DNA of 63,625 nucleotides, filler included, from Collodictyon triciliatum (taxonomy: Eukaryota), in the NCBI GenBank assembly GCA_043381765.1. It is 6 parts of 6 records of this genome, joined end to end, with 100 filler letters (N's around TTAATTAATTAA, not from the genome) between each part and the next. Parts side by side here need not be neighbours in the genome. Positions count along the whole stretch, not along the records: positions 43,912 to 55,717 come from JBHJMP010002309.1; 5 more parts are not named here. One strand, 5' to 3'. The translations under genes and the position numbers were made by a program. Under the pieces are notes generated by a model. That model worked only from the letters and a program-made list of their open reading frames with translations. It had not been told where the DNA came from and did no database searches. Position 1 is the stretch's first letter; every line of letters starts with the position of its first letter. Below, in pieces: positions 25,540 through 55,817 of the stretch.

Positions 25540-28295
25540 ATGGTATGGTTTCACCCCTCCCCCTCCTTGCCGATGCCGTGTACCAATATAATATTCAACC
25601 CTTCCAAAAATACATAAATAAGCTTGACAATAGTTACATAAAAAGGAAAGAAAGTTGACCTTATATCAAGTCGATCTTACTCGTAACTTCTATCTCTAAT
25701 TAATAAATAAAAAATAAAATTAAAGGCCGATCCGTCCACATCAGTTCGTCGTTCAAGCTCGCGAAATCGAACCCTCGACCCCCTTACTCCAGGAAAGGTG
25801 AGATTCTAAACAGAGTACCATGCTGATCACTTAACTCTTTTTAAATTCTTTTTTAAATACACTAAATGCCTTAGAGGAAAAAAAAACCATAACAAAATAT
25901 AAACTTTTCATGAAACCAAAGGCCTGCGCTTATTCTATGCCTGAAAATATTACATGCAATAGTCAAACACTTCTCCCGAGAATTCCCCACTGCCCGAAAG
26001 GCAAAAGAAAAGCTCAAGAGGAAAAGCGAGGGATGTCCAAAACGTAGACTCTGTAGTGTTTAAGGACTCAGATCTGAAACGAATTCAAGTAAGGCACTAT
26101 ATGTGCGCTTTTTATTTTTACCCAGCTAGCTGCACCCCATATAAATATGACTAAGAGATGCATTGAACCTCTGATGCATATACTTTGAATCGAATAAAGG
26201 AAAAAAAATACCTCTAAAGCATTTATCAAATATTTTTTTAATTAAAAATGAAATGTCCTCATCGATACTAAAATCAAAACCAGTCGCTATCACACGTTCC
26301 CACGAAAACCGAGGAAGAATCAATGCGCTCAACCACTGAAGAAAAAAAGCTACAGAGTATGTTGGAAGCCAAGGTATAAAGAAACAACTGATCATATCAA
26401 TGGATACGATTTCTTCAAGCATAGAAAGGCTAATTCAGACATTTACATCCTTCAAAAGGCTCGTAAGGAACGTTTGCTTGCGTACGACGACGAGAAGAGA
26501 CGCAATCATCCACTTTCTGAAGCGGAAGCGCGCGAGGTCGACCGAGCAAATTACATCCTGCGTCATGCGAATGAAGTAGCAAAAGAGCAGAAGGATGATG
26601 TCAAGTTCATGAACTCTATTGCACAGTATGCAAAGTGTGCCACTATTCGAGACTTGCAAATCGAAGAAAAGAAAGCCATCACGCGCGATCGTGTCGAGGA
26701 AGAGCGTCGTTTAAATGCCATGATGGAGCTGGAGAGAATCAAGGCCATACAGATGTATGAAGAACGGGAGACAAAGAAGGCGCAGGAGAGAGTAAAAGGT
26801 GCCGAGGTAATAAAGAAGCAGATTGAAGAGCGCGAAAAGGAAAGAATTCTCCAGCAGGAAGCTCGTGAACAGGAGCTGATTGCGCTCCAGCTGCAAAAGC
26901 AGAAGCTTGAAGAGGAAGAAAGAGAAGATGCCAGGAGGAAGGCTGTTGCTCAAAAGTGAGTTTAAGATTACACATATCATCATATTGTAATCTCATTCAT
27001 GTGTATTGTCTGGGTTCTTATGCATTAACAATTCTTCCTTTCAATATTACAGGTCGATGATTACAGAAATCACAAAGTCCAATACGGAGCAGATTATGCG
27101 CAAACATATGCAAGTCGAAAGAGAGAAAGAAGGTACCAGTGGATATGTGCATTTTTCATTCTTATACATGCATATATTATTAGTACAGAGTCTTAAGTCT
27201 TTCGTATTAATCACAGAGGACCTGAGGATTGCTCAATATATATCCGAGAAAGCGCAGCGAGAGCAGGTTGGATTCCTATTCTTTTCTCAAGATAAACTTT
27301 CCATGTCGAACTTGTTCAAATGCGATGTTTCAATCGAGTGGTCTGCAAAAGTAATATTGTCTTTCTTAGCAACTGGTCGAAGAACAGGAACGAAAAAGAG
27401 CTGAGAAAGAAAAAGAAGTGGCACGGATGAGAAGCCTTCAAGAAAAGGCATTCTTTTACTTTACCAAGCATGTATTTATCTCCATTTCACCATACTAATC
27501 AACAAACAATTTTCGAAATGCAACAGAAAAAGGATGAACAAGAAGAAAAAGATGCACTGCGAGCAAAGAGAGCCATGGAAGCGCGCGACCGCGAATGGCG
27601 GCAGAAAGAGCTAGAAAAAGCTGAGCAGAAAGAGCGAGTAAACCGGGAGCTGGCAGTTGCTCGAGAGCACCAAAAGATAGAGCGTGAAATGAAAATGGCT
27701 CTAGTTGTTCAGGAGGAACGAGTAGAGTATGAAAAGAACGTGTCCATCGCGATGCGACAGATGGAAGAGGAGACAAAGCGGGACCAATCAGAGAAAGCTA
27801 GACGTTTGAAGCATTCCGAAGAAATCAGAGTAATTGCATACCTCCGACATACACACTCTTTCATAGCCTTCTCCCTAGGCAGTGAATATCTTGAGATTTT
27901 TTTTCCTACCGCGCATCATTCAAACCATATTCCCGCATTGGAAAGTTGATTTAATCATTTAATCCCTTCAGGACCAAGTCCGAGGCAAAGAAGAGATGAA
28001 AAAGCGAGAGTTGCAGGAGTTCTTTGATGAAGGTCGGCGCCTTCGTGTACAACAGCAGGAAGAAATGGCCCGACTGGAGGTATGAATTCTTGGGCATCCA
28101 GAGCAATCCTGTGTTCCTTACCAATCCCTCCCTGTACTTTTAAATAGTCATATATCCTCTTTCACTCCATTGTCCTCTTTTCTTATCGTTGTTCTCTCTT
28201 AGGAAATCAAAGTGGAGAAACTGCGCCAATTGAGAAACAGTGGCATCCCAGACAAATTCCTGTCCGACCTTGAGCGCCGGAAAATCGTGCTGTGA
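25540..28295 (+). CDS. CFAP45: Cilia- and flagella-associated protein 45 (CCDC19)
   Basis: ATG-only first exon, then in-phase exons. EQKDDVKFMNSIAQYAKCATIRDLQIEEK, EEERRLNAMMELER, KDALRAKRAME and C-terminal KLRQLRNSGIPDKFLSDLERRK match the CFAP45 pattern. Confidence 0.88.
26180..26209 (+). repeat. Short A-tailed dispersed repeat, copy 2 (CFAP45 intron)
   Basis: ATACTTTGAATCGAATAAAGGAAAAAAAAT between ACCTCTGATGCAT (26167) and ACCTCTAAAGCAT (26210). Confidence 0.7.
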
Positions 28296-31904: not shown

Positions 31905-32003
31905 NNNNNNNNNNNNNNNNNNNNNNNNNNNNNNNNNNNNNNNNNNNNTTAATTAATTAANNNNNNNNNNNNNNNNNNNNNNNNNNNNNNNNNNNNNNNN
32001 NNN
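31905..32003. other. Artificial contig linker
   Basis: N-run, TTAATTAATTAA, N-run. Confidence 0.95.
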
Positions 32004-32108
32004 NTTTTTTTTCTTAAGAATTTTAAAAAAAAAAAAAAAATAAAAAAAAAAAAAAAGCAAGGAAACAATAAATAAAGAACAATTCACGATGTAAATCGGG
32101 CCCTTTAG

Positions 32109-43630: not shown

Positions 43631-43811
43631 GTAAGACAGTCGATGTAATCAGAACGATTGCCAAAATAAACAGGCTAAATGTGCATATTTACTGAAGAGA
43701 ATGAAGTGTCTTGAAGAAAGAAGAAAGAAGAAAGAAGAAAGAAGAAAGAAGAAAGAAGAAAGAAGAAAGAAGAAAGAAGAAAGAAGAAAGAAGAAAGAAG
43801 AAAGAAGAAAG

Positions 43812-43911
43812 NNNNNNNNNNNNNNNNNNNNNNNNNNNNNNNNNNNNNNNNNNNNTTAATTAATTAANNNNNNNNNNNNNNNNNNNNNNNNNNNNNNNNN
43901 NNNNNNNNNNN
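43812..43911. other. Artificial contig linker
   Basis: N-run, TTAATTAATTAA, N-run. Confidence 0.95.
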
Positions 43912-44189
43912 TCCCGGCAACCGATGCCTCTCCGAATCCCTCGGGCCTGGGCGATGACCCGTCTGCAAAGAGCAAAGCGTGTCTGATTTTATGAGCCCTT
44001 CGCCTTTATCTTCCCTTATTATACATACATACATACACAAACTTCTCTTTCGCGAGTATCGCCACTATCTGCCGTCCCCTTGGCCATCTCTTTCATTTTC
44101 TTTTATTAATTCTGCTCTAGCCACATGGTTCTGATGCGAACCAATAATGAATAATGATACCATTCGCAAATCCTGCACGACTATGCTAT

Positions 44190-44360
44190 GAGTCTCTCGC
44201 AAACGCCGCACGTTTTGACAACGATGCAAAACAGTCTTAATCCCATACTAGAAAAGGCATACAATATTTCGATTGGCAAGCCTGGTGCGCTAGTATCCAA
44301 GGTCTCACCACTTTTTTCACAAAGATTGTGTAGTGGTGAAGGCTGCCAGGGAAAGACCCA
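44190..44360 (-). ncRNA. Candidate Fanzor omegaRNA scaffold
   Basis: Directly 3' of the Fanzor ORF; at least five mutually compatible stems (see findings). Ends approximate. Confidence 0.6.
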
Positions 44361-44372
44361 ACAGCCTGTTTT

Positions 44373-46259
44373 TTAAAAGAGAGGTGTATGCATATTTGGA
44401 AGGATTAAAACAACTTTCTTGAGTCTATCATTAGCGCTGTTAAAGTCCCCTGTCAAGAATACACTTTGTTTGCTTTCTGAGCGATTGCATTCTCTACATA
44501 TGAGACATCTAAACACGTTTTTTGAGTTTCCTTTCAGTTTCATATATTCCAGTTCTTTTTCGCAGTGGCGACACATCTTGGAGGTTCTAAATTCATCTAT
44601 GCTAACTTGTTCAAAACGTTTGGATAGTATTTTTCGTAATCCTCTTCCGATTGTTGGCATAAAATGGTTCGTCTGAGATTTTCTGCTCCAGTCTCCATAC
44701 GCCAGTACAACATCCTTGCCAAAGGTCTTTTCGATTCTCTCCATAAACAATTGTTCACTTCCTTTTCGTATTTACATACTGTCTCCATCTCATCTTTCGA
44801 AAAGTTACTTGTTCATAAAATCTGGATAGTTCTATCTGATATCTTGATTTCATAGATATATATTTTCGAAATTTTTCATAATCGACCGTGCATGAATTAT
44901 GTTTATTCCGTTTTGTCTCTAAATCGATTAAAGATGCTCTTGATGTCTCAAACTGCTGATTCTCTTCAAAGTCCTGTGACCAAAAGAAACAGCACTTTGT
45001 AAATCTGTTGTCATACATATCCCTGAAGCATTGTACTTTTTTTTTTCGTGAAAGAGAATTTTGTGATTTTTAAGAGATTTGCTATTATGCCTTGTTTGGT
45101 GTGCTGTGCAACGTAATTTCTTACCTGTCTCATCCACCATGTAAACCAAATTAAACTTGCCTGCGCCCACTCTAACTAATTTTTTTTTTATTCGCTAATA
45201 AAGATAACTGCTCTTCGGAAAGTTCATCTACATAAATGTATTCTTGGGTTTTCTTTTGATTATATTTGATTCTTAAATTTGAAATACCTTTCTTTCCAAA
45301 AAATGATGACACCGCCAAGCTGTCTGTTTGTATAATGTATATAAAATTGTAGTCTCTTTGATGAAATATCCTCTCCTTCATTTCAAAGAACTTATACCAT
45401 ATGGTCTCCTTGCATCCTGATATATTCTTCAGTAATACTGTTTTTTCCGATGATACTAATAAATCTATCAAACATGCAGTATCTAGATTAATATGACATG
45501 GTATATTGGTAGTTCTTATAGAGATTGGTTGAAGCAGTTTGGTTCCAATGTCCTCAAAAATGTGATTCATGTATATCAGACATGGAATGTACTTATTCGG
45601 ATTGACTTTGATGTCATATTCGATACCCTTTACAATATCGCTGGTTATGATATGGTGCATATGCGTTGTAGCCCATTCTTTATATTGTTCATGTATTTCG
45701 AGCTTCTTGAAGATGGATTTTTTTTCAACTTTCGTAACTCTACCTTTTTAGTAGCTTCCGTAATATTCTTCATATTTAGGAACTGTTTGATTTATAAAGC
45801 GCAGTAGCCTCTTTAAAAATGTTCCTTAATGTTATTATGATAAGCTGTGAACATTTGCTTCGCCAAGTATGGTGATACATGAGAGAGTCCAACCAACGGA
45901 AAGCCTTCTTCTCGGGACAAAAGGAATCGAAAATAACTAAGTTAAAAGGTCATCATGCCATCTCTCAAACCTGGATGTTTTAATATTGTGCGTTTATCTT
46001 GTGGAACTATTCCGACTGTCTTTAAAACATACAAAAAAAACATTTCATCGATTGTTGGGAGCTGTTGTGATTTCAATATGTAACATCTTGCAAACAGATA
46101 AGTGTGGGTAACCAAATTATGACACAATAAAACCGTATCGTTGATTTTGTAATAGCTATCCGCATTCTTTACATCCGACTTTAGAGATGTTTTCACATTT
46201 CGATAGTCTGGTTTTACAGACTTTAGATTCTCAGACTCAAGGCGTTTTCTTTTCTTCAT
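44373..46259 (-). pseudogene. Decayed Fanzor (eukaryotic TnpB-family RNA-guided nuclease)
   Basis: Collinear intronless fragments: VKTSLKS..INDTVLLCHNLVTHTYLF, YHNNIKEHF, KLLQPISIRT..INLDTACL, IQTD, RuvC-I region LVRVGAGKFNLVYMVD, YGDWS..PTIGRGLRK, RuvC-II IDEFRTSKMC, CRHC/CREC zinc ribbon, RuvC-III TGDFNSA. Several stops and frameshifts. Confidence 0.9.
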
Positions 46260-46966
46260 GTGAAAGTCTTTGTTTTACTTTTTCCTTTAGAAAAATACCG
46301 AGCTTTCAATTTTAGTAAAACTTTAGTCAATTAGTCAATTTGATATATAAATAAAATCATTTTATGTAAAATTAAGCATCTACCGAGACTTTCAGAGTAT
46401 GTGCATTGTGGAAAACAAACACACGAAGTTTTTTTTTTTTTGTATAAGTGATTTGAGACAAAACGCTGAGAGCCGTTTCGGCGAGTTCGAAAGGACGACC
46501 GTATAGCCATTTCGATTGAAAGCCAACATATCGACTTCAAACAACATGATTACCGCCGCAAGTGTGGATAGTATGCTTTTTTGAAATGCATGTTTGGTGG
46601 CAGTTTATAGGGTGGGTTCTGTCTGGACTAACACAAGGGCTTGTTTGTAATTTTTTGGATTTTAATTAGATAATGGAAAATATAATATAAATTGATTATA
46701 TGAATTAAATGAGATTATCAAGTATTTTTAACCCTTATTATATTATTCCAAGCATACTATTATATTGTTCAGGTTGTTTCTTGGATTCATCAAAGCTCCT
46801 GCTTTCGTCAATCAAGATTTAATTTAGTGGTTGTCTGTGCAACAAACTGCTATATATGAGTATACTTTCGTTGTATGAAAAGTGTTGTGCCTTGAAAGGG
46901 ATAAAACCGAGCTCGTCACAACCTTTGTAGTGAAGTGTATCCATTTACAGGCTGGATGAGACCGAA

Positions 46967-47250
46967 GAAAAAAGGTAAGGAAAAAGAAAAAAAGGAAAAA
47001 AAGAAAAAAAAGAAAAAAAAGAAAAAAAGAAAAAAAAGAAAAAAAAGAAAAAAGAAAAAAGAAAAAAGAAAAAAGAAAAAAAGGAAAAAAGAAAAAAAGA
47101 AAAAAAGAAAAAGAATAAAGAAAAGAATAAAGAAAAGGAAAAGGAAAAAGGAAAAAAGAAAAAGAAAAGAAGAAAAAGAAAAGAATAAAGAAAAAGGAAA
47201 GGGAAAAGGAAAAGGAAAAAGAATAAAACAAAACAAAACAAAACAAAAGA
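46967..47250. repeat. A/G-rich low-complexity tract
   Basis: (A5-9G)n-like run. Confidence 0.9.
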
Positions 47251-48056
47251 TGAATGAACCAGAGCAACTAATACTGAGTATTATATTCATACTTATCTGG
47301 CTACCCGTGAGCCGATGGCTAGAGCTCTAATCTTATAACCCTCTCTTCAGTTGTTTCTTGTTCTCTTCGATTCCTTGCGTGAATCCCTTGGTCATGGAGC
47401 CTTTCATCTCTTTGCTGGAGCATCTCCTTTTGCCGTCGTTGTCTATCACGAACCCGCTTCTTTGCTAGTCTGCCTTCCCTTTCTCCAGTGTCTCATTTTT
47501 CCTCTTGACTTTTGTAAGTCCGCTTTTTCTCACCCTCGCTATCTTATTATATTTTTTATACCCAAACATCTGGAGCCTTGACCGTTGCTCACGCTGACTG
47601 GGCGTGGTAAAATGACCCTTTTGCTTATATTCTTGCTCCGTCAAATCGAACTATATAGTTTTTATATTAATGCGCCGTTCGATATTCAAACTTCTAAAAC
47701 ATCATCATTTATTATCAATAAATCCGTCAATAAAATACCTCTATCATTTCGAATGCTGTAAAACTTAATCACTGTTTTTATACGCAACTGTTCTAACTCA
47801 CTTCATGGAGGGGGATGTTTGGCTTCACTTGACTCTTTATTTTACATATAATCCTCATACCAGAGAATAAATAATATTTGTTGTTTTCTTCCATGGGTTG
47901 CAATATTGTATGCTTTGAGATCTCGCTATGATGGCAGGCTAGGAGCGTTGGAGTCGCCCATGCCACAGAGTTGTCCTCATTGCACGTTGCATGCTTATGC
48001 TCCGTGTGCAAAAGACTATCACTACACCTCTTCGATCGATCCGTCTTTGCTCCCCC

Positions 48057-48203
<147 letters not shown>

Positions 48204-48325
48204 CCTCTTTCCTTCGTTGCTCGCGTAGATCCCTGATAATTGTGGATGTTATAGTCAAGAGCCCTGCTCCACCGTGCTTTTCTACACAGCCGACGGGCTC
48301 GACTCCACCGCAGGCGAGGCAAAGG

Positions 48326-49198
48326 ATGAACCGACCAGGCCCGACGATTCCGTCTCTTGCGCTGGGACTCGGTCTTCCCGCTGCAAAGAGTCCCCTGAAC
48401 GACTCTCCTGAGACAACCAAGTTCAACTATGAGGTTGCGCTTCAGCTAGTCGAGCAGCCAATCGCTGTGAAAGTGGAGTTGTCTGACGGACGGTTGTTCT
48501 CTGCAACCTTTTGTGTTGGAGATACTTTCGCCACAGTGAAAAAGTATCTACAGGACAACCACGGAATTGAATACCATCGCTTGACTCTGTATTCCGGCAA
48601 GCGAGTTCTTCATGATCCACTGTCCATAAACGATGTGCCGGACCTGGTGGGCTCGAAAAGCCCTGTGATCCAGGGTGTTTTCAAGGTACGCTGAAAAGAC
48701 TCATGTTTCCCAATTTTTATTACAATTATTTTTATTCATCTATCCATTTAAATATCTTTTCATTTGATGATTGATTTATTGATTTATTGATTTATTGATT
48801 TATTGATTTATTGATTTATTGATTTATTGATTTATTGATTTGTTATTTATTTGTTATTATCTCATTCACGCATGCTCGGTTTATCCAAGTAGTTTTTGTT
48901 TTTGTTTTTGTTTTTGTTTTTTTTAAAAAAAAAAAATAAGAAATCAATAAACGGAACATGTCAGGAGCAACAACCGAACTCATTGGATGCTGGAGATACC
49001 CTTATTCAAGCTGCTCTTGAGGCCCCGGTAGCCCTGTCTGACGACCCCCAAAAGTCTCAAGAGTTTGAAATGGGTAGTGAGTGGGCCGTAAAAACGTATA
49101 AAAAGGGTCTTTTAAACGGTAAAAAGAAGGGGAAAAGCAAGTATGAAATCGCACCTTTGGAGGAACCTAAAAGGTCTCTTGCATGCACAATTCTCTAG
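48326..49198 (+). CDS. Ubiquitin-like domain protein with C-terminal CaaX (two exons)
   Basis: Exons 48326-48685 and 48965-49198 in phase; beta-grasp-like IAVKVELSDG..GDTFATVKKYL..LTLYSGKRVLHDPLSIND; ends KKKGKSK...ACTIL-stop. Confidence 0.7.
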
Positions 49199-49824
49199 CA
49201 CATCACCGCAGGGAGTCGCTGGGCTTATTATTATCTCTGGTTTGTCTGTGTATGCATACAATAGACCTACCAGAAGCGCAATACTCTTGTCACCATTTAT
49301 ATATGTATATTCACATATAAATGATGACAATTCTTTACTTCAAACCCAAAAGCAATCGCACATATATTCACCTTTCTTTGAACAGGGACGCTAGTTCATA
49401 TGGGTCTGTATGGCTTATATTACTATTTCTCGAGTTAATTTCTAAACGTCAAGTCGTACATAGGAGCACTTCTATAATAAGAGACACATTTCTTCGTTAT
49501 TCAATTCCAACATGTCTGTCAGAAAATGAGATGGTACATCATCAATCAATGAGAACTACGTTACCAATATCCTTAGTTGTCTCTCGCTCACTCGCATCTA
49601 GTGCTCTTTTCAGGCTTAATTTCATAATGCGATTTTGTTTTCCTTGATGTATGTACAAAATGACACTCCGTTTTTTTGTGTATCCGTTCAAAAAAATATA
49701 AAGTCATTAACACAGAAGGGGCAATTAACGTTGCATCGAAAAAAGTAAACCAAGAGCTCTAAAATGATTCAAAGTGGATAACAATAGGAAATAACCAACT
49801 TGTGGTTGAGATTTTACCAAAGAA

Positions 49825-50290
49825 ATGACTTCAATTTTGCATTACGGATGCCCAGGCACCAATAACATGGGTGTATCACAATCCTAACAACAGCACAGAC
49901 ACAGATGAATCACGTAGGAGAAGCTGGGATGGTCATCATGGAGATACAGTTTGCCTAATTCAATAGTATAAATTCCAGCTTTTTCAGTAGGGAATGATCT
50001 TCTCTGTCGTAAACTTGTCTGCTCGTCCATCGTCTCTGCGCCTGGTGTCTGCAAGCACGTCTCTTAGTTGGCAGTTGCCGATGGTGAAACGAGAAGGCAC
50101 AAAGGAGAATGAGTTGGAGCTGGAATCTGTTTCGTTGACCCATGCATCAAATGTGGAATATATTATATTTTCGAGTTCACAAGTAGGATATCTTTTATTT
50201 ATCGTTATATATTCAAATTAAATACACTATTATTTATCTATATTGAATTTTACTACTGCTAAGGTGATTGGCAACATGGTTGCGATCTGA
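49825..50290 (+). CDS. Possible small multi-exon hypothetical gene
   Basis: Four short segments join in phase through GT-AG sites (about 100 aa). No motif recognised. Confidence 0.2.
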
Positions 50291-50674
50291 TCGCATTTCT
50301 CCAACTGCTATCGATACCATCGCGCGATCAAGAACCCGTGAATAAAAGGGGATACTCCTAAGTAGTCGCAATAACAGCCCATTGCTAGCCTGTTGTGCTC
50401 GGCTGGAGCGGCAAAGAAGTTGTTTGGACTGATCAAATCGTTGACTGATCAACTGCCAAGCTCGATTTTTTTTCTTCGAAACAGCAGAAATCATGATCAT
50501 AAGGGGCGACTCCAGTGATTGGGCCCGTCTTCGAACACGAAGACAATATTCGACACCCCACTCTTCTATGATCTCTCCTCTTCAAAGCGCATTAAAACAA
50601 GCTAACTCGCACGTTTTATTTCCTTAAACGCCTCGCGTGATCTCGCTTAATGGAGCAGCCGCAGGAATCACTCG

Positions 50675-50693
50675 ATGCCGTAAGTAGCCGCCC

Positions 50694-50788
<95 letters not shown>

Positions 50789-53109
50789 TCCTTCTTTTAT
50801 TATCTGTTTCTTTATTTCATATTTGCCCTCAAATAGGAATCCCAAAACCTAGAATATAGCCACTCTAGAAAGCTACTTTTTCGTTTTTTTCCTTTTTATT
50901 TTAGCACTTGATGTTGTTTTCCTTCTCTTTCAATATAACATTCCGCCAGCAAACACCGAAAGACCAACTCATAGGAACATGTTTCTCCTAATCACTCCTG
51001 CATTTTTTTTTTACAGAGATAACCGAGCAAGCCTCAATATATATTTTATTAAAACAGGAGAGGAAGATCGTCATCTAGTTCCCGCTCCCCTTCTAAGACG
51101 AGAACTCGCCAACGTTCAAAGCGAAGTCCGAGCTCCAGTTCAAGCTCGCGGTCCAGCTCCAGTTCTAGCTCGAGGTCGAGTTCCAGGTAAGACTAGCTCT
51201 TCGCGGCACATACTTTGAAGCCAACAAAGCACTATCTGCACTGCATGAAAAGAACATTGCTGCACTTCTCGCAATTGAAGAAATCCCCAGATGATTGCTC
51301 CAAAATCTTTGAAACCTTCATTGTTTCTCCCTGTATTGAAATTGATCAAACAAATATTTATGGGGGTTGTTCATATGAGACATCTACTTCCATGACAAAG
51401 ACTCTGTCTGGGCTTTTTTTTAACTTTGCTGAACCACTAACTATTACGACTACATTCCAGCTCCAGAAGCAGCCCCACTCGAGACAGAAGGTATTGTCGA
51501 ATATTCAACTGATTAATTTATATCGAACATCATCACCATCACCATCGCCATCACCATCACCATCACCAAACACAGACGTCGAAGCCCGTCCCCTGTCAAG
51601 AAGCTCACAATATCAGAGCTTTCTCGTAATGTAACCGCAGCCCACTTGAAGGAAATATTCTCAGTCTTCGGAAGTATCAAGGAAGTCATTCGGCCAGTTG
51701 ATACTCGAGTTCAGTTGCCGCTGAATTATGCCTATGTAGAATACAATAGTCGAACAGATGCTGAAAAGGCAGAAAAAGCGATGAACGAGGTTTACTCTGG
51801 TTTTTTTTTATTTGTTTATGATTTTTTCAATACCTTACGATTTATCTGATCAAATCATGTAAATTATTTTCAATCACATTTTTTTTTCATGAGAAGTTGG
51901 AAATATTACATACTATTCACCCACAAACTTTAATTTTTGAAAAAAAAGGGACAAATTGATGGATGCATAGTTAAAGTTCAGTTTGTACTGAAGCCCCAAG
52001 AACCAGTTGCCAGACGTGAGGACTTCTTTATCTATTGCTCGCAACTCTGTTATCTAGTCAAAATGTCACCCTCCCTCCAATACAAATCCAGATACCTTCT
52101 AGCCTTTTCCTTTTATCAAATTAACTTATCGTGATGATAAGGAACGAAAATACCAGCCTTACCGATATCGGGCATCGCTATTTATACCCTATTTACCTTG
52201 CACAGCCTTGCCACCGAGCCAACCATGCAAACATACTTACGTATAAAACTGAGCCAGGTGCCAGCCCTCGACGTCGCCAACGAAGCCCATCGCCACGCAG
52301 GTCAAGTCGTGGACAACGTAGCATGTAAAGTCTAGAGCTTATTTACTCATTGTATGAAAAAAAAAATTAATAATTGAAATATCCTAACCGCTGACTGCAT
52401 CGTTCTGTTTTGCCTTGTATACGAGCCTCTATTTACCCTCTTTGGGCGACCATTACTGTTATACTTCTACACAAGAGACTGCTGACTCTTTTCTCATTTT
52501 TTCAATTATATCTAAATGAGCCGAAATCATGTATATCTTCACAGTGAAAGACGCCGTTCTCCAGTCAGACGCCGTTCACCAGTTCGACGCCGTTCTCCAG
52601 TTCGTCGTCGCTCTCCCATTCGCCGGCGCTCACCTGTCCGCCGCCGGTAAGTCAAACAAGGACAAACAGATTTATGAATGACTCTGGCCTAAAAAAACGA
52701 AACACTAAAAGCTCGTCTTTATGAAGCTCCATCATTTGTATAATCATGTATTGTAATGAGAGGATCTATTAAATCTATGAGTAAGAAAACAATGGCAATA
52801 CTGCGTGTGACAACTTTCTGACCACCGCAGGAGCCGCAGCCCAAAACGTGACTCACGTCGCAGCCGAAGGTGACTCCTACTGTTCTCTGGTCCCCACACA
52901 TTCGTCATTTCCAGTCACAAAGCGTTTATATCCTGCTTCATTTTGAGAATATTCCAAGATGACCAAATCGCTGCAGAATCCATGACTCACACTGCCTCAT
53001 AAACAGCCCCGCCCGCCGACGCGCTGCATCTTCGTCCTCGTCTTCATCCTCTTCATCGTCGTCGTCCTCCTCAAGCTCGTCCTCGCCGTCCCGCTCTCCC
53101 GCTGGGTGA
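50675..53109 (+). CDS. RNPS1: RNPS1/SR45-like RRM and RS-rich splicing/EJC factor
   Basis: ATGCC|gtaagt first exon; Ser-rich N-terminus; RRM LSRNVTAAHLKEIFSVFG..YAYVEY..AEKAEKAMNEGQIDG; RRRSP repeats. Confidence 0.9.
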
Positions 53110-53933
53110 GTCAGCACGCCACACATACCACACATCTCGTGCTTGTGTTACACTTTGATTCGTTACAGTGGAAAATAATAAAATTAAAATTAAATAAATA
53201 GAAGCAAAATGAATATAGATAGGAAAGCCCCATCTTGACAGATTCGAAATTACCCAATCATATAGCGGGAAGAGCGATGCCAAGTAAAGGAAAAGCCGAC
53301 CCCCAAAGCAAACAGCCCAGCAGCCACATCGCATTATGCGCTCCATTTCTCTGGCTCGTTCAGACATGACAGGCAAGTGCATCGGAAAGAAAACATCTTG
53401 TGCGNNNNNNNNNNNNNNNNNNNNNNNNNNNNNNNNNNNNNNNNNNNNNNNNNNNNNNNNNNNNNNNNNNNNNNNNNNNNNNNNNNNNNNNNNNNNNNNN
53501 NNNNNNNNNNNNNNNNNNNNNNNNNNNNNNNNNNNNNNNNNNNNNNNNNNNNNNNNNNNNNNNNNNNNNNNNNNNNNNNNNNNNNNNNNNNNNNNNNNNN
53601 NNNNNNNNNNNNNNNNNNNNNNNNNNNNNNNNNNNNNNNNNNNNNNNNNNNNNNNNNNNNNNNNNNNNNNNNNNNNNNNNNNNNNNNNNNNNNNNNNNNN
53701 NNNNNNNNNNNNNNNNNNNNNNNNNNNNNNNNNNNNNNNNNNNNNNNNNNNNNNNNNNNNNNNNNNNNNNNNNNNNNNNNNNNNNNNNNNNNNNNNNNNN
53801 NNNNNNNNNNNNNNNNNNNNNNNNNNNNNNNNNNNNNNNNNNNNNNNNNNNNNNNNNNNNNNNNNNNNNNNNNNNNNNNNNNNNNNNNNNNNNNNNNNNN
53901 NNNNNNNNNNNNNNNNNNNNNNNNNNNNNNNNN

Positions 53934-55058
53934 GGCAGCAAAAGATGGATGAACAAAAAGTCAAACTAGAAATATTGAACCAACAAGTGGCTGAGAAAAA
54001 CAAGGTAATTCACAGAACGTAATATACCCAGCTGCAGAGAAATATATTTTCACCTAGTCTCGTCTGACATTCGAACCAGGAATTTGATTTGATGGTGCAA
54101 GACTATGACACGCGAATCGAGGAAGTGCGAGTGCAGCTAGACCACCAAACGAAGGTTGAATGAGACTTTAAGTATAATACTTACACACCTATCTCGACAG
54201 GCGGACTTACCAACACATACCGCACAGGAACGAGAACGCCTTGAGGCTGAGGTTGCTGAGCGGTCTGATTCCTATGACGTTCAAATGGAAAAATACAAAA
54301 TGGAAATAAGGTTGATTGAACATTTTGATTCTGACTCAGATTAATACAAAGAAATGAAATTTGGATATATAAAAGCCCTTTCACACTCATACTACTTTTT
54401 TTTACTATGCCAAATCTTATGGCCTTTTTTTTTCAATATTCTTGGACAGGTCTTTAGAGGAACAGCTGGAGAGCATTCGGCAAGAAACAGCCTCTATGAA
54501 GCAACAAGCCTCCGAAAAACAACAAATACTGGCGGATTTGAAGCAAGGAAAGGTATCAATTCAGTGTGAAAAGTAACATATGGGCATCCTTGCTCTTGTT
54601 TCTCTTTTAAAGCCCAGCACTTATTGAACCAGGGGAATAGAAGCTCAGACCCGAGGCAAGGAAAAGCACCTGCAAAGCGTATGTCTCCATCCATACATCC
54701 ATACATCCATACATCCAAGAATCGAATAAAGGAAAAAAAATACATCCATACATCCATACATCCATACATCCATACATCCATACATCCATACATCCATACA
54801 TCCATACATACATACATCCATACATCCATACATACATCCATCCATACATACATCCATCCATCCATCCATCCATCCATACATACATACATACATACATACA
54901 TACATACATACATACATACATACATACATACATACATACATACATACATACATACATACATACATACACATATATTATGCGCAGCTACCACCGTGGGTTC
55001 TTCAAAGCCAACCCGCCCAGCAAGCCGCTCTGGAGCCAGCGCTCTTGGAAATGCATGA
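53934..55058 (+). CDS. Coiled-coil protein, 3' exons after a gap
   Basis: In-phase E/Q/K-rich exons (QQKMDEQKVKLE.., EFDLMVQDYDTRIEE.., ERERLEAEVAE.., SLEEQLESIRQE..). Confidence 0.6.
54689..54968. repeat. (CATA)/(CATC) compound microsatellite, interrupted by copy 5 of the short A-tailed repeat at about 54719-54741
   Basis: GAATCGAATAAAGGAAAAAAAAT embedded in the CATACATC array. Confidence 0.85.
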
Positions 55059-55626
55059 CCTCTAGGTGTAGACACAATCAACGCACTCAACTACTGAATA
55101 AAACAACCACGGAACAAAAACACAAAAACAAACATAAACAATGTGGGGTATCATCTACGCAGTACATGGGTGATAGAGCCACATAAAATACACACACATA
55201 CACTTCAATAAATCACTCGAATTGATTCAAATAACACAATATAATCTCATACGGAGCAGTTATAAAAAGAAAAAAAAAGAAAGGAAAAGGTACTGGGAGC
55301 AGGCACTTTACCGTCCCCACACCCGCTCCAATACTTCAGTCCCCGCCAGCAGTTCGTGCCCAAAGACACTATAAACACAGGCGATGGCTCCACGAAGCAG
55401 CCGCCACCAAACACAACGCCGACCCGGCGGGAATCGCAACCCTCGTGCATCCACAACCGCACAACAAAATGACACTTCAGCTTCGACCTCAGAGCGCGTG
55501 AGTCCCCCTACTTCCTTATTGCTTACTTACTTCTAAAGAACTCTTCCTTTCACACTATATGTGTGAGTTATATTGTGGATATAGTCGGCTACAGAATCAG
55601 TACGGAAAGCAGATGGTGAAGGAAGA

Positions 55627-55717
<91 letters not shown>

Positions 55718-55817
55718 NNNNNNNNNNNNNNNNNNNNNNNNNNNNNNNNNNNNNNNNNNNNTTAATTAATTAANNNNNNNNNNNNNNNNNNNNNNNNNNN
55801 NNNNNNNNNNNNNNNNN
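55718..55817. other. Artificial contig linker
   Basis: N-run, TTAATTAATTAA, N-run. Confidence 0.95.

Follow-up and report, generated by a model that had tools for sequence, protein, structure and literature searches.

The Fanzor1 motif has been known since 2013, as has the fact that the elements bearing it are multi-copy, have been captured by mariner and other transposons and occur in large DNA viruses (PMC3627910); that Fanzors act as RNA-guided nucleases, have introns and carry nuclear localisation signals was reported in 2023 (PMC10432273, PMC10530073), with 3,655 putative Fanzor nucleases, unique at 70% clustering, and up to 122 copies per genome (PMC10530073). The Fanzor1 prototype is SpuFz1 of Spizellomyces punctatus (PDB 8GKH), whose element SPu-1 holds one open reading frame (ORF) within about 2.1-2.4 kb and encodes a protein of about 630 amino acids (aa) (PMC10432273, PMC3627910). 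Here we analyse a window of 63,625 nucleotides (nt) of DNA from Collodictyon triciliatum (assembly GCA_043381765.1), on the minus strand of which lies what is very probably a decayed, non-functional Fanzor1 copy, placed inside a repeat of about 2.4 kb in the nuclear DNA of a microbial eukaryote. The gene relic is delimited as follows:

44373 to 46259, minus strand: Fanzor1 pseudogene, from ATG (46259-46257) to TAA (44375-44373), with a read-through of 598 positions in which seven breaks are marked X.

Along this interval the minus strand falls into six overlapping stop-to-stop frames, which are collinear with full-length proteins of about 620-650 aa. When the closest full-length relative, P0001 (634 aa), was searched against the window by tblastn, its residues 2-587 were matched by three segments in collinear order (summed E 2e-101); the rest of the window gave nothing better than E 0.5, and no second copy. 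Likewise, a frameshift-aware protein-to-DNA alignment against four references (P0001, the translations from the giant-virus loci L002 and L005, and P0007) stayed collinear with every one of them from Met1 as far as the RuvC-III motif, and neither method detected Fanzor homology upstream of the ATG. When the last fragment of 132 aa was compared by phmmer with 1.84 billion representatives, 949 proteins matched at E≤1e-3, 173 at E≤1e-10 and six at E≤1e-30; the full-length matches measured 620-653 aa, the matched region being their C-terminus, and P0001 was the best of them (58% identity, E 2.9e-35). P0001 in turn matched three PDB sequences at E≤1, all of them Fanzor1, namely SpuFz1 (8gkh, E 9.2e-37 over residues 14-607), PpFz1 of Parasitella (7e-34) and GtFz1 of Guillardia (7e-16). 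The window's own C-terminal fragment reached the same proteins directly (PpFz1 at E 1.4e-11, SpuFz1 at 0.0015, GtFz1 at 0.057), and its remaining PDB matches at E≤1, four MinE chains with values of 0.06-0.34, are at chance level. In Pfam, one of the six fragments matched Cas12f1-like_TNB (PF07282) at E 0.0019 with 18.8 bits, below the 26.3-bit cutoff; among ten relatives this family was found in eight at E≤0.01 and in one above the cutoff. A word-based search with the 191-aa middle fragment gave no match.

On sequence grounds, the stretch is a decayed Fanzor1, and neither a Fanzor2 nor a bacterial TnpB. The original prediction, made without database searches, had called a Fanzor in general terms; this call is borne out and can be narrowed to Fanzor1, P0001 being a SpuFz1 homologue and the window fragment matching both PpFz1 and SpuFz1, and the comparison with TnpB and Fanzor profiles that it had proposed yielded the weak PF07282 match together with the direct match to PpFz1. 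A Fanzor2 or IS607-type identity, which would entail greater closeness to IS607 TnpB, about 400-500 aa and a serine-recombinase TnpA partner, was considered and rejected, since no Fanzor2 or TnpB chain appears among the PDB matches at E≤1, the read-through spans about 600 codons and no recombinase lies nearby.

The likeness to SpuFz1 extends to the geometry of the active site, for in both SpuFz1 and P0001 the spacing from the catalytic Asp to the Glu is 158 residues, and SPu-1 too forms a multi-copy family that includes partial copies (PMC3627910). SPu-1 possesses inverted ends of 30-33 nt and putative TA duplications (PMC3627910), whereas none are detectable in the window, and the window copy, which matches SpuFz1 only weakly with its own fragment, differs further in being dead, with Gly for Asp, stops and frameshifts. 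PpFz1 (Parasitella parasitica, PDB 9CF0) is the best direct PDB match of the C-terminal fragment, through the GDWS...IDEFRTS..C..C region, but this protein is fungal and contains a long insertion, and the fragment aligns with it only over the RuvC-II and zinc-ribbon region. The nearest full-length relatives are the Tc1/mariner-type Fanzor1 genes of giant viruses (the PGv-1 type of PMC3627910, here the loci L001-L004), with which the window shares the domain order, the xDPGK, NEFRTSK, C4 and RD motifs and a Lys/Arg-rich N-terminus. Unlike the window copy, the viral ones are intact, lack a 98-nt stretch discussed below and stand beside a DDE_3 transposase between perfect 32-nt inverted ends; the window shows neither transposase nor inverted ends, and possesses a conserved 3' tail of about 115 nt.

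The residues on which catalysis would depend can be located one by one:

45165 to 45167, minus strand: GGC (Gly) in place of the RuvC-I catalytic Asp (D372 of P0001, D383 of SpuFz1); the Pro next to it is Ala (45164-45162).
44592 to 44594, minus strand: GAA, the RuvC-II Glu (E530 of P0001, E541 of SpuFz1), retained in IDEFRTSK.
44496 to 44573, minus strand: C4 zinc ribbon (CRHC ... CLIC), with CxxC at 44573-44562 and 44507-44496; all four conserved Cys are retained.
44445 to 44450, minus strand: GGG GAC, with the RuvC-III Asp (44447-44445, GDFNSAN) retained and the preceding conserved Arg changed to Gly.

The metal-binding residues of SpuFz1 are D383, E541 and D606, with N385 (PMC10432273). 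Counting along the printed alignment, with a chain offset of 394, the first three correspond to D372, E530 and D581 of P0001 and to Gly, Glu and Asp in the window. RuvC-I, at 45176-45156, reads GTT AGA GTG GGC GCA GGC AAG (VRVGAGK), and the columns D372 and P373, both altered in it, show no variation among the 54 full-length relatives (all fetched proteins of at least 560 aa, together with five translations from viral loci, with shorter rows excluded). The RuvC-II Glu-[TS][TS]-C4 motif is present (IDEFRTSKMCRHC...CLIC), with E530, T533, S534, C537, C540, C564 and C567 all kept, and in RuvC-III the conserved Asn four residues past the Asp has become Asp. Overall, 27 of the 37 columns conserved in at least 90% of these relatives are kept and ten are altered. 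In terms of the Fanzor motif of Bao and Jurka, D-X(125,275)-[TS][TS]-X-X-C4-X(5,50)-RD (PMC3627910), the first D is absent from this copy. The loose end of one contig from another sequencing run (X4), reverse-complemented by hand, reads V-G-V-D-A-S-K with GAC at the RuvC-I site, and since a sister copy thus keeps the Asp, its loss is a derived condition. Loss of this Asp had been anticipated from the sequence and stands on alignment to the references, as does the persistence of the RuvC-II Glu, the paired CxxC ribbon and the RuvC-III Asp, though the Arg before the last is Gly; every coordinate given for these features proved exact when re-read by hand.

The reading frame is broken in several places, which are listed here with one interval of a different kind:

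45942 to 45944, minus strand: in-frame TAA, replacing a Tyr conserved in all four references.
45814 to 45816, minus strand: frameshift, one base missing, beside a T5 run; some other copies have an extra base there (all four runs).
45724 to 45769, minus strand: frameshift pair, at about 45765-45769 and in an A8 run at about 45733-45726; if the pair is not counted, TAA at 45750-45748 is a second in-frame stop.
45177 to 45195, minus strand: frameshift within or beside the A10 run 45190-45181; the four alignment paths place it within 45177-45216.
44760 to 44764, minus strand: frameshift, one extra base, in AAAAGG.
44939 to 45036, minus strand: candidate spliceosomal intron, 98 nt, GT..AG, absent from all four references.

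In the region 45769-45725 the path of P0001 makes two frame changes and those of the other three references run through the TAA at 45750-45748, so that in total TAA occurs in frame once or twice and the frame shifts four or five times, and the interval does not form a protein-coding ORF. At about 45769 some other copies leave out one base, and one contig has a loose end at 45770; at 45815 the extra base of the other copies is not a T, which speaks against a run-length miscount. Because the copies differ at both places, the lesions at about 45815 and 45769 are private or sub-family changes rather than run-length errors. A stop at 45942 and several frameshifts had been predicted and are confirmed, but the lesions outnumber those listed then, and the statement that they fall mostly in homopolymers was too strong, for only two frameshifts lie in long homopolymers (A8 and A10). 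A variant code with TAA as a sense codon was also considered and rejected, as TAA ends the gene at the expected C-terminus and the host ORFs are normal in the standard code. Judged from these lesions, the gene copy is dead: it cannot function as an RNA-guided nuclease, because the RuvC-I Asp is lost, one or more stops and the frameshifts interrupt it, and about a quarter of the residues most conserved in the family are changed.

Between 45029 and 44935 the frameshift-aware alignment places a frame change together with 32 extra codons; 98 nt amount to 32 codons plus 2 nt, and the frame change lies next to an A10 run at 45046-45037. We scored every stop-free removal from this region that leaves the gene in frame (n=3,097), and 19 of the 20 best were exactly 98 nt long. 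The GT..AG removal, 45036-44939, ranks 11th with a score of 939 versus 962 for the best, and once it is made, the frame is regained and the spacing is exactly that of the relatives. By a rough estimate, the chance of meeting GT..AG among some 17 near-equivalent offsets is about 7%, which is supportive but no proof. For comparison, a CFAP45-like gene elsewhere in the window contains five introns of about 73-136 nt, four of which start with GT and all of which end with AG; the remaining one, in the 27448 region, may begin with GC instead of GT. An inner option of 63 nt, 45036-44974 (GTACAA...TCACAG), closely resembles a host intron (GTACCA...TCACAG) and needs one more frameshift, and among the 15 of 24 contig joints listed none was a splice joint matching the candidate. 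It is likely, on a balance that runs from about even to slightly favourable, that 45036-44939 is an intron and not the product of a homopolymer frameshift at 45046-45037; an insertion, or the 63-nt intron combined with a frameshift, may also account for the 98 nt. The full-length collinearity of the fragments claimed by the original prediction holds, but its description of them as intronless is rendered doubtful by this candidate. Gain of introns by Fanzor genes is already known (PMC10530073).

The relic does not stand alone, as became apparent when four public runs, with contigs partly metagenomic and partly from runs labelled as single-organism, were aligned to the window at 80% likeness. 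The unit that recurs in them, and a structure near its 3' end, are the following:

about 44259 to 46662, minus strand: repeat unit (the whole element), about 2.4 kb, placed by contig depth and divergence edges in four runs; edges approximate.
46260 to 46662, minus strand: 5' non-coding part of the repeat unit; it includes the bin 46548-46638, where summed depth is greatest in runs X2 and X3.
44304 to 44366, minus strand: two adjacent hairpins, just past the stop codon and inside the repeat unit; contig depth continues over them.

The four runs placed 187, 394, 427 and 91 contigs on about 44273-46655, with identities of 80-99+% and tiling the whole element. Those of run X2 comprise 30 at 99% or above, 88 at 95-99%, 143 at 90-95% and 133 below 90%, and in a run labelled as single-organism as many as 19 different contigs overlap at one position. 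Depth drops below about 44273 and one contig diverges at 44259, while past 46655 the loose ends agree for about 6 nt before diverging from run to run. A further copy is found in P0005, a 'protein' of 136 aa at NCBI from a contig of 582 nt, in which two reading frames are fused across a frameshift: its first part matches the window read out of frame, whereas the second, which has 78% identity to the true frame, keeps the Arg-Asp. To judge from these contigs, the Fanzor1 family is multi-copy and diverged in related organisms, and the proposal that this lineage hosts or hosted a Fanzor family finds support in the hundreds of contigs at 80-99% in four runs and in P0005. The search for other copies thus came out empty within the window, by tblastn, and productive outside it, in the form of many diverged copies on contigs of other runs. 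Contig joints were also observed that correspond to internally deleted derivatives, for instance from 46294 to 46466, and these deletions, along with the high depth at 46548-46638, suggest that the element has given rise to short non-autonomous derivatives.

The resemblance to giant-virus Fanzors noted at the outset is equally well founded. Atlas clusters nearest to P0001 are 92-100% Nucleocytoviricota and carry the name 'transposase', and five giant-virus loci with intact genes are 49-88% identical to P0001. The viruses that carry these nearest full-length relatives are freshwater and marine ones, and some of the genes lie within Tc1/mariner-type transposons. One of them, L001, on a 254-kb giant-virus contig, contains an intact Fanzor1 of 634 aa and a DDE_3 (IS630/Tc1-type) transposase, both flanked by perfect inverted ends of 32 nt, the right one lying within 16-47 nt past the Fanzor stop; this element adjoins a ribonucleotide reductase gene, and L005 adjoins a MutS gene. 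The segment 4637-7952 of L001 (and 4630-7952 of L003) forms a complete Tc1/mariner-type element of 3.3 kb, with a transposase of 346 aa. In a maximum-likelihood tree, built in a quick version from the read-through with X at the breaks and the 54 relatives, the window is sister to the clade of L001-L004 and P0001, to which its identity is about 43%; this grouping has a Shimodaira-Hasegawa-like approximate likelihood-ratio (SH-aLRT) value of 97, and the terminal branch of the window a length of 1.11.

When metagenome contigs were scanned with a profile, 598 stretches came up as candidates and 527 were confirmed, their identity to the window fragment being 58% at most. Among the 80 loci examined further, 50 have an ORF of 560 aa or longer, 16 are truncated where the contig ends, and in the other 14 a shorter ORF lies inside the contig; at least 12 of these 14 cover only part of the protein or shift frame, and L014 runs in one frame to P0001 aa 8-632. 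The partial or frame-shifted loci observed were L009, L013, L015-L017, L019, L023, L030, L042, L054, L073 and L084, some of them on contigs of 17-42 kb. Scans with the 132-aa fragment as a single protein matched two stretches in viral_contigs and 497 in metagenome_contigs, and confirmed none in either. On this evidence both intact relatives and decayed relics are common outside the source genome. The suggestion that intact copies or a consensus could provide a new programmable nuclease consequently adds little, given 50 of 80 loci that already hold an ORF of at least 560 aa and the thousands of putative nucleases in print.

In intact relatives the product of about 630 aa is a TnpB-like RuvC nuclease, which takes up a guide RNA transcribed from its own element's 3' end and, by cutting matching DNA that adjoins a short motif, helps that element to persist. 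Such a guide-RNA mechanism has been shown for SpuFz1 and others in the literature, rather than for the element described here (PMC10432273). The two hairpins at 44366-44304 are more stable than most shuffled sequences (z -2.29; 3 of 200 shuffles as stable), and are a candidate guide-RNA scaffold or 3'-end structure. The history that we propose is an exchange between giant viruses and hosts, in a direction on which we can only infer, which would have been followed by amplification and decay in the host.

Since the closest full-length relatives sit on giant-virus contigs, and decayed Fanzor1 relics occur also inside long, virus-sized contigs, the stretch might be viewed as an endogenous viral element, left by a giant-virus genome that had integrated, rather than as a host transposon copy. 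We regard this as improbable. None of the six ORFs tested in 47852-51849 is a viral hallmark gene (one is an RRM_1 exon, one a weak ubiquitin-like match and four are without family), the 2.4-kb unit recurs with shared edges as many diverged variants in single-organism runs, as a transposon would, the viral proteins share only about 43% identity with the copy, and the candidate intron is not found in the viral genes. Still slimmer are the chances that the gene is intact in the organism and that its stops and frameshifts are assembly or sequencing errors. Two frameshifts do fall in A8 and A10 runs, the assembly stretch has many gaps (14 runs of N), and the stretch itself occurs in no run, the best run containing 8% of its sampled words; nevertheless, the TAA at a conserved Tyr and the lesions at 45815 and 44760 are not run-length errors, ten of the 37 conserved columns are substituted, the catalytic Asp among them, and other copies, such as P0005, are broken as well. 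A domesticated, nuclease-dead Fanzor that would still bind in an RNA-guided manner, by analogy with the dead TnpB-derived regulators (bioRxiv 10.1101/2023.11.30.569447), is scarcely credible: the Glu, the zinc ribbon and the RuvC-III Asp do persist beside a missing RuvC-I Asp, but the frame is broken in at least five places and the unit is a diverged multi-copy repeat with no sign of constraint.

Several observations nonetheless weigh against a decayed Fanzor1 copy within a host repeat. Terminal inverted repeats of the element do not exceed chance, since equal scores came from 480 of 500 shuffles in one test and 153 of 200 in another, and neither a transposase in 43912-55717 nor a target-site duplication was found, the ends being marked by repeat edges shared in other runs. 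By alignment the hairpins have no sequence likeness to viral 3' flanks, and a guide RNA is only suggested. Contig depth does not measure copy number, and differences between strains may add to the variety seen; reads or contigs of the source assembly were not found among the runs, and the homopolymer frameshifts could in part be assembly errors. The tree is a quick version, in which most rows have no taxonomy and the closer relatives are fragments only. Finally, the window is concatenated from separate pieces, across whose joints adjacency is meaningless, and the real context of the Fanzor1 copy is limited to 43912-55717 (11.8 kb); a chimeric contig had been named as a danger, and the window as a whole is in fact artificially joined, but the copy lies entirely inside this one piece.

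A decayed Fanzor1 copy is an ordinary relic of an already well-described family. It represents one more host lineage and one more decayed copy for a family catalogued in thousands, which matters little beyond annotation, and as a source for genome editing it offers nothing beyond the many intact natural relatives. It adds a small data point to a long-standing proposal, in which Fanzor elements are carried from one eukaryote to another by giant viruses (PMC3627910, PMC10432273). A more far-reaching picture, which we hold only tentatively and think unlikely on the whole, would be a flagellated, poorly sampled protist lineage with a high-copy Fanzor1 family, a fairly recent exchange with giant viruses of fresh water, a gained intron, possibly no inverted ends (a non-mariner carrier, perhaps with the 3' hairpins) and possibly intact active copies.

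As regards the surroundings, the window consists of six pieces, four of them of nearly equal length (about 11.8 kb), joined by five linkers of the form N44-TTAATTAATTAA-N44, each of which is a stop in all six frames:

11832-11931, 23737-23836, 31905-32004, 43812-43911 and 55718-55817: linkers between the pieces.

The piece 43912-55717 carries, besides the relic, an RRM_1 exon (E 3e-11), a weak ubiquitin-like match, microsatellites and a gap of 529 N. Prokaryotic contamination was considered and rejected, given the eukaryote-type genes in this piece and PDB matches to Fanzor1 only. Rfam and tRNA scans of the window gave no match, and the runs listed as sharing its words included none of RNA. 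Long microsatellites, purine-rich, trinucleotide or of the TATG/CATA type, were observed at 43715-43811, 46905-47330, 47939-48250 and 54600-55000; they flank the Fanzor1 element and occupy much of the intergenic space of its piece. The CFAP45-like gene (TPH domain) extends over 26252-28082 on the plus strand, in a part other than that of the Fanzor1 element, and is intron-rich. Its protein has 55% identity to one from a protist transcriptome and 42-47% to proteins of animals and fungi, which points to a flagellated microbial eukaryote without close sequenced kin.

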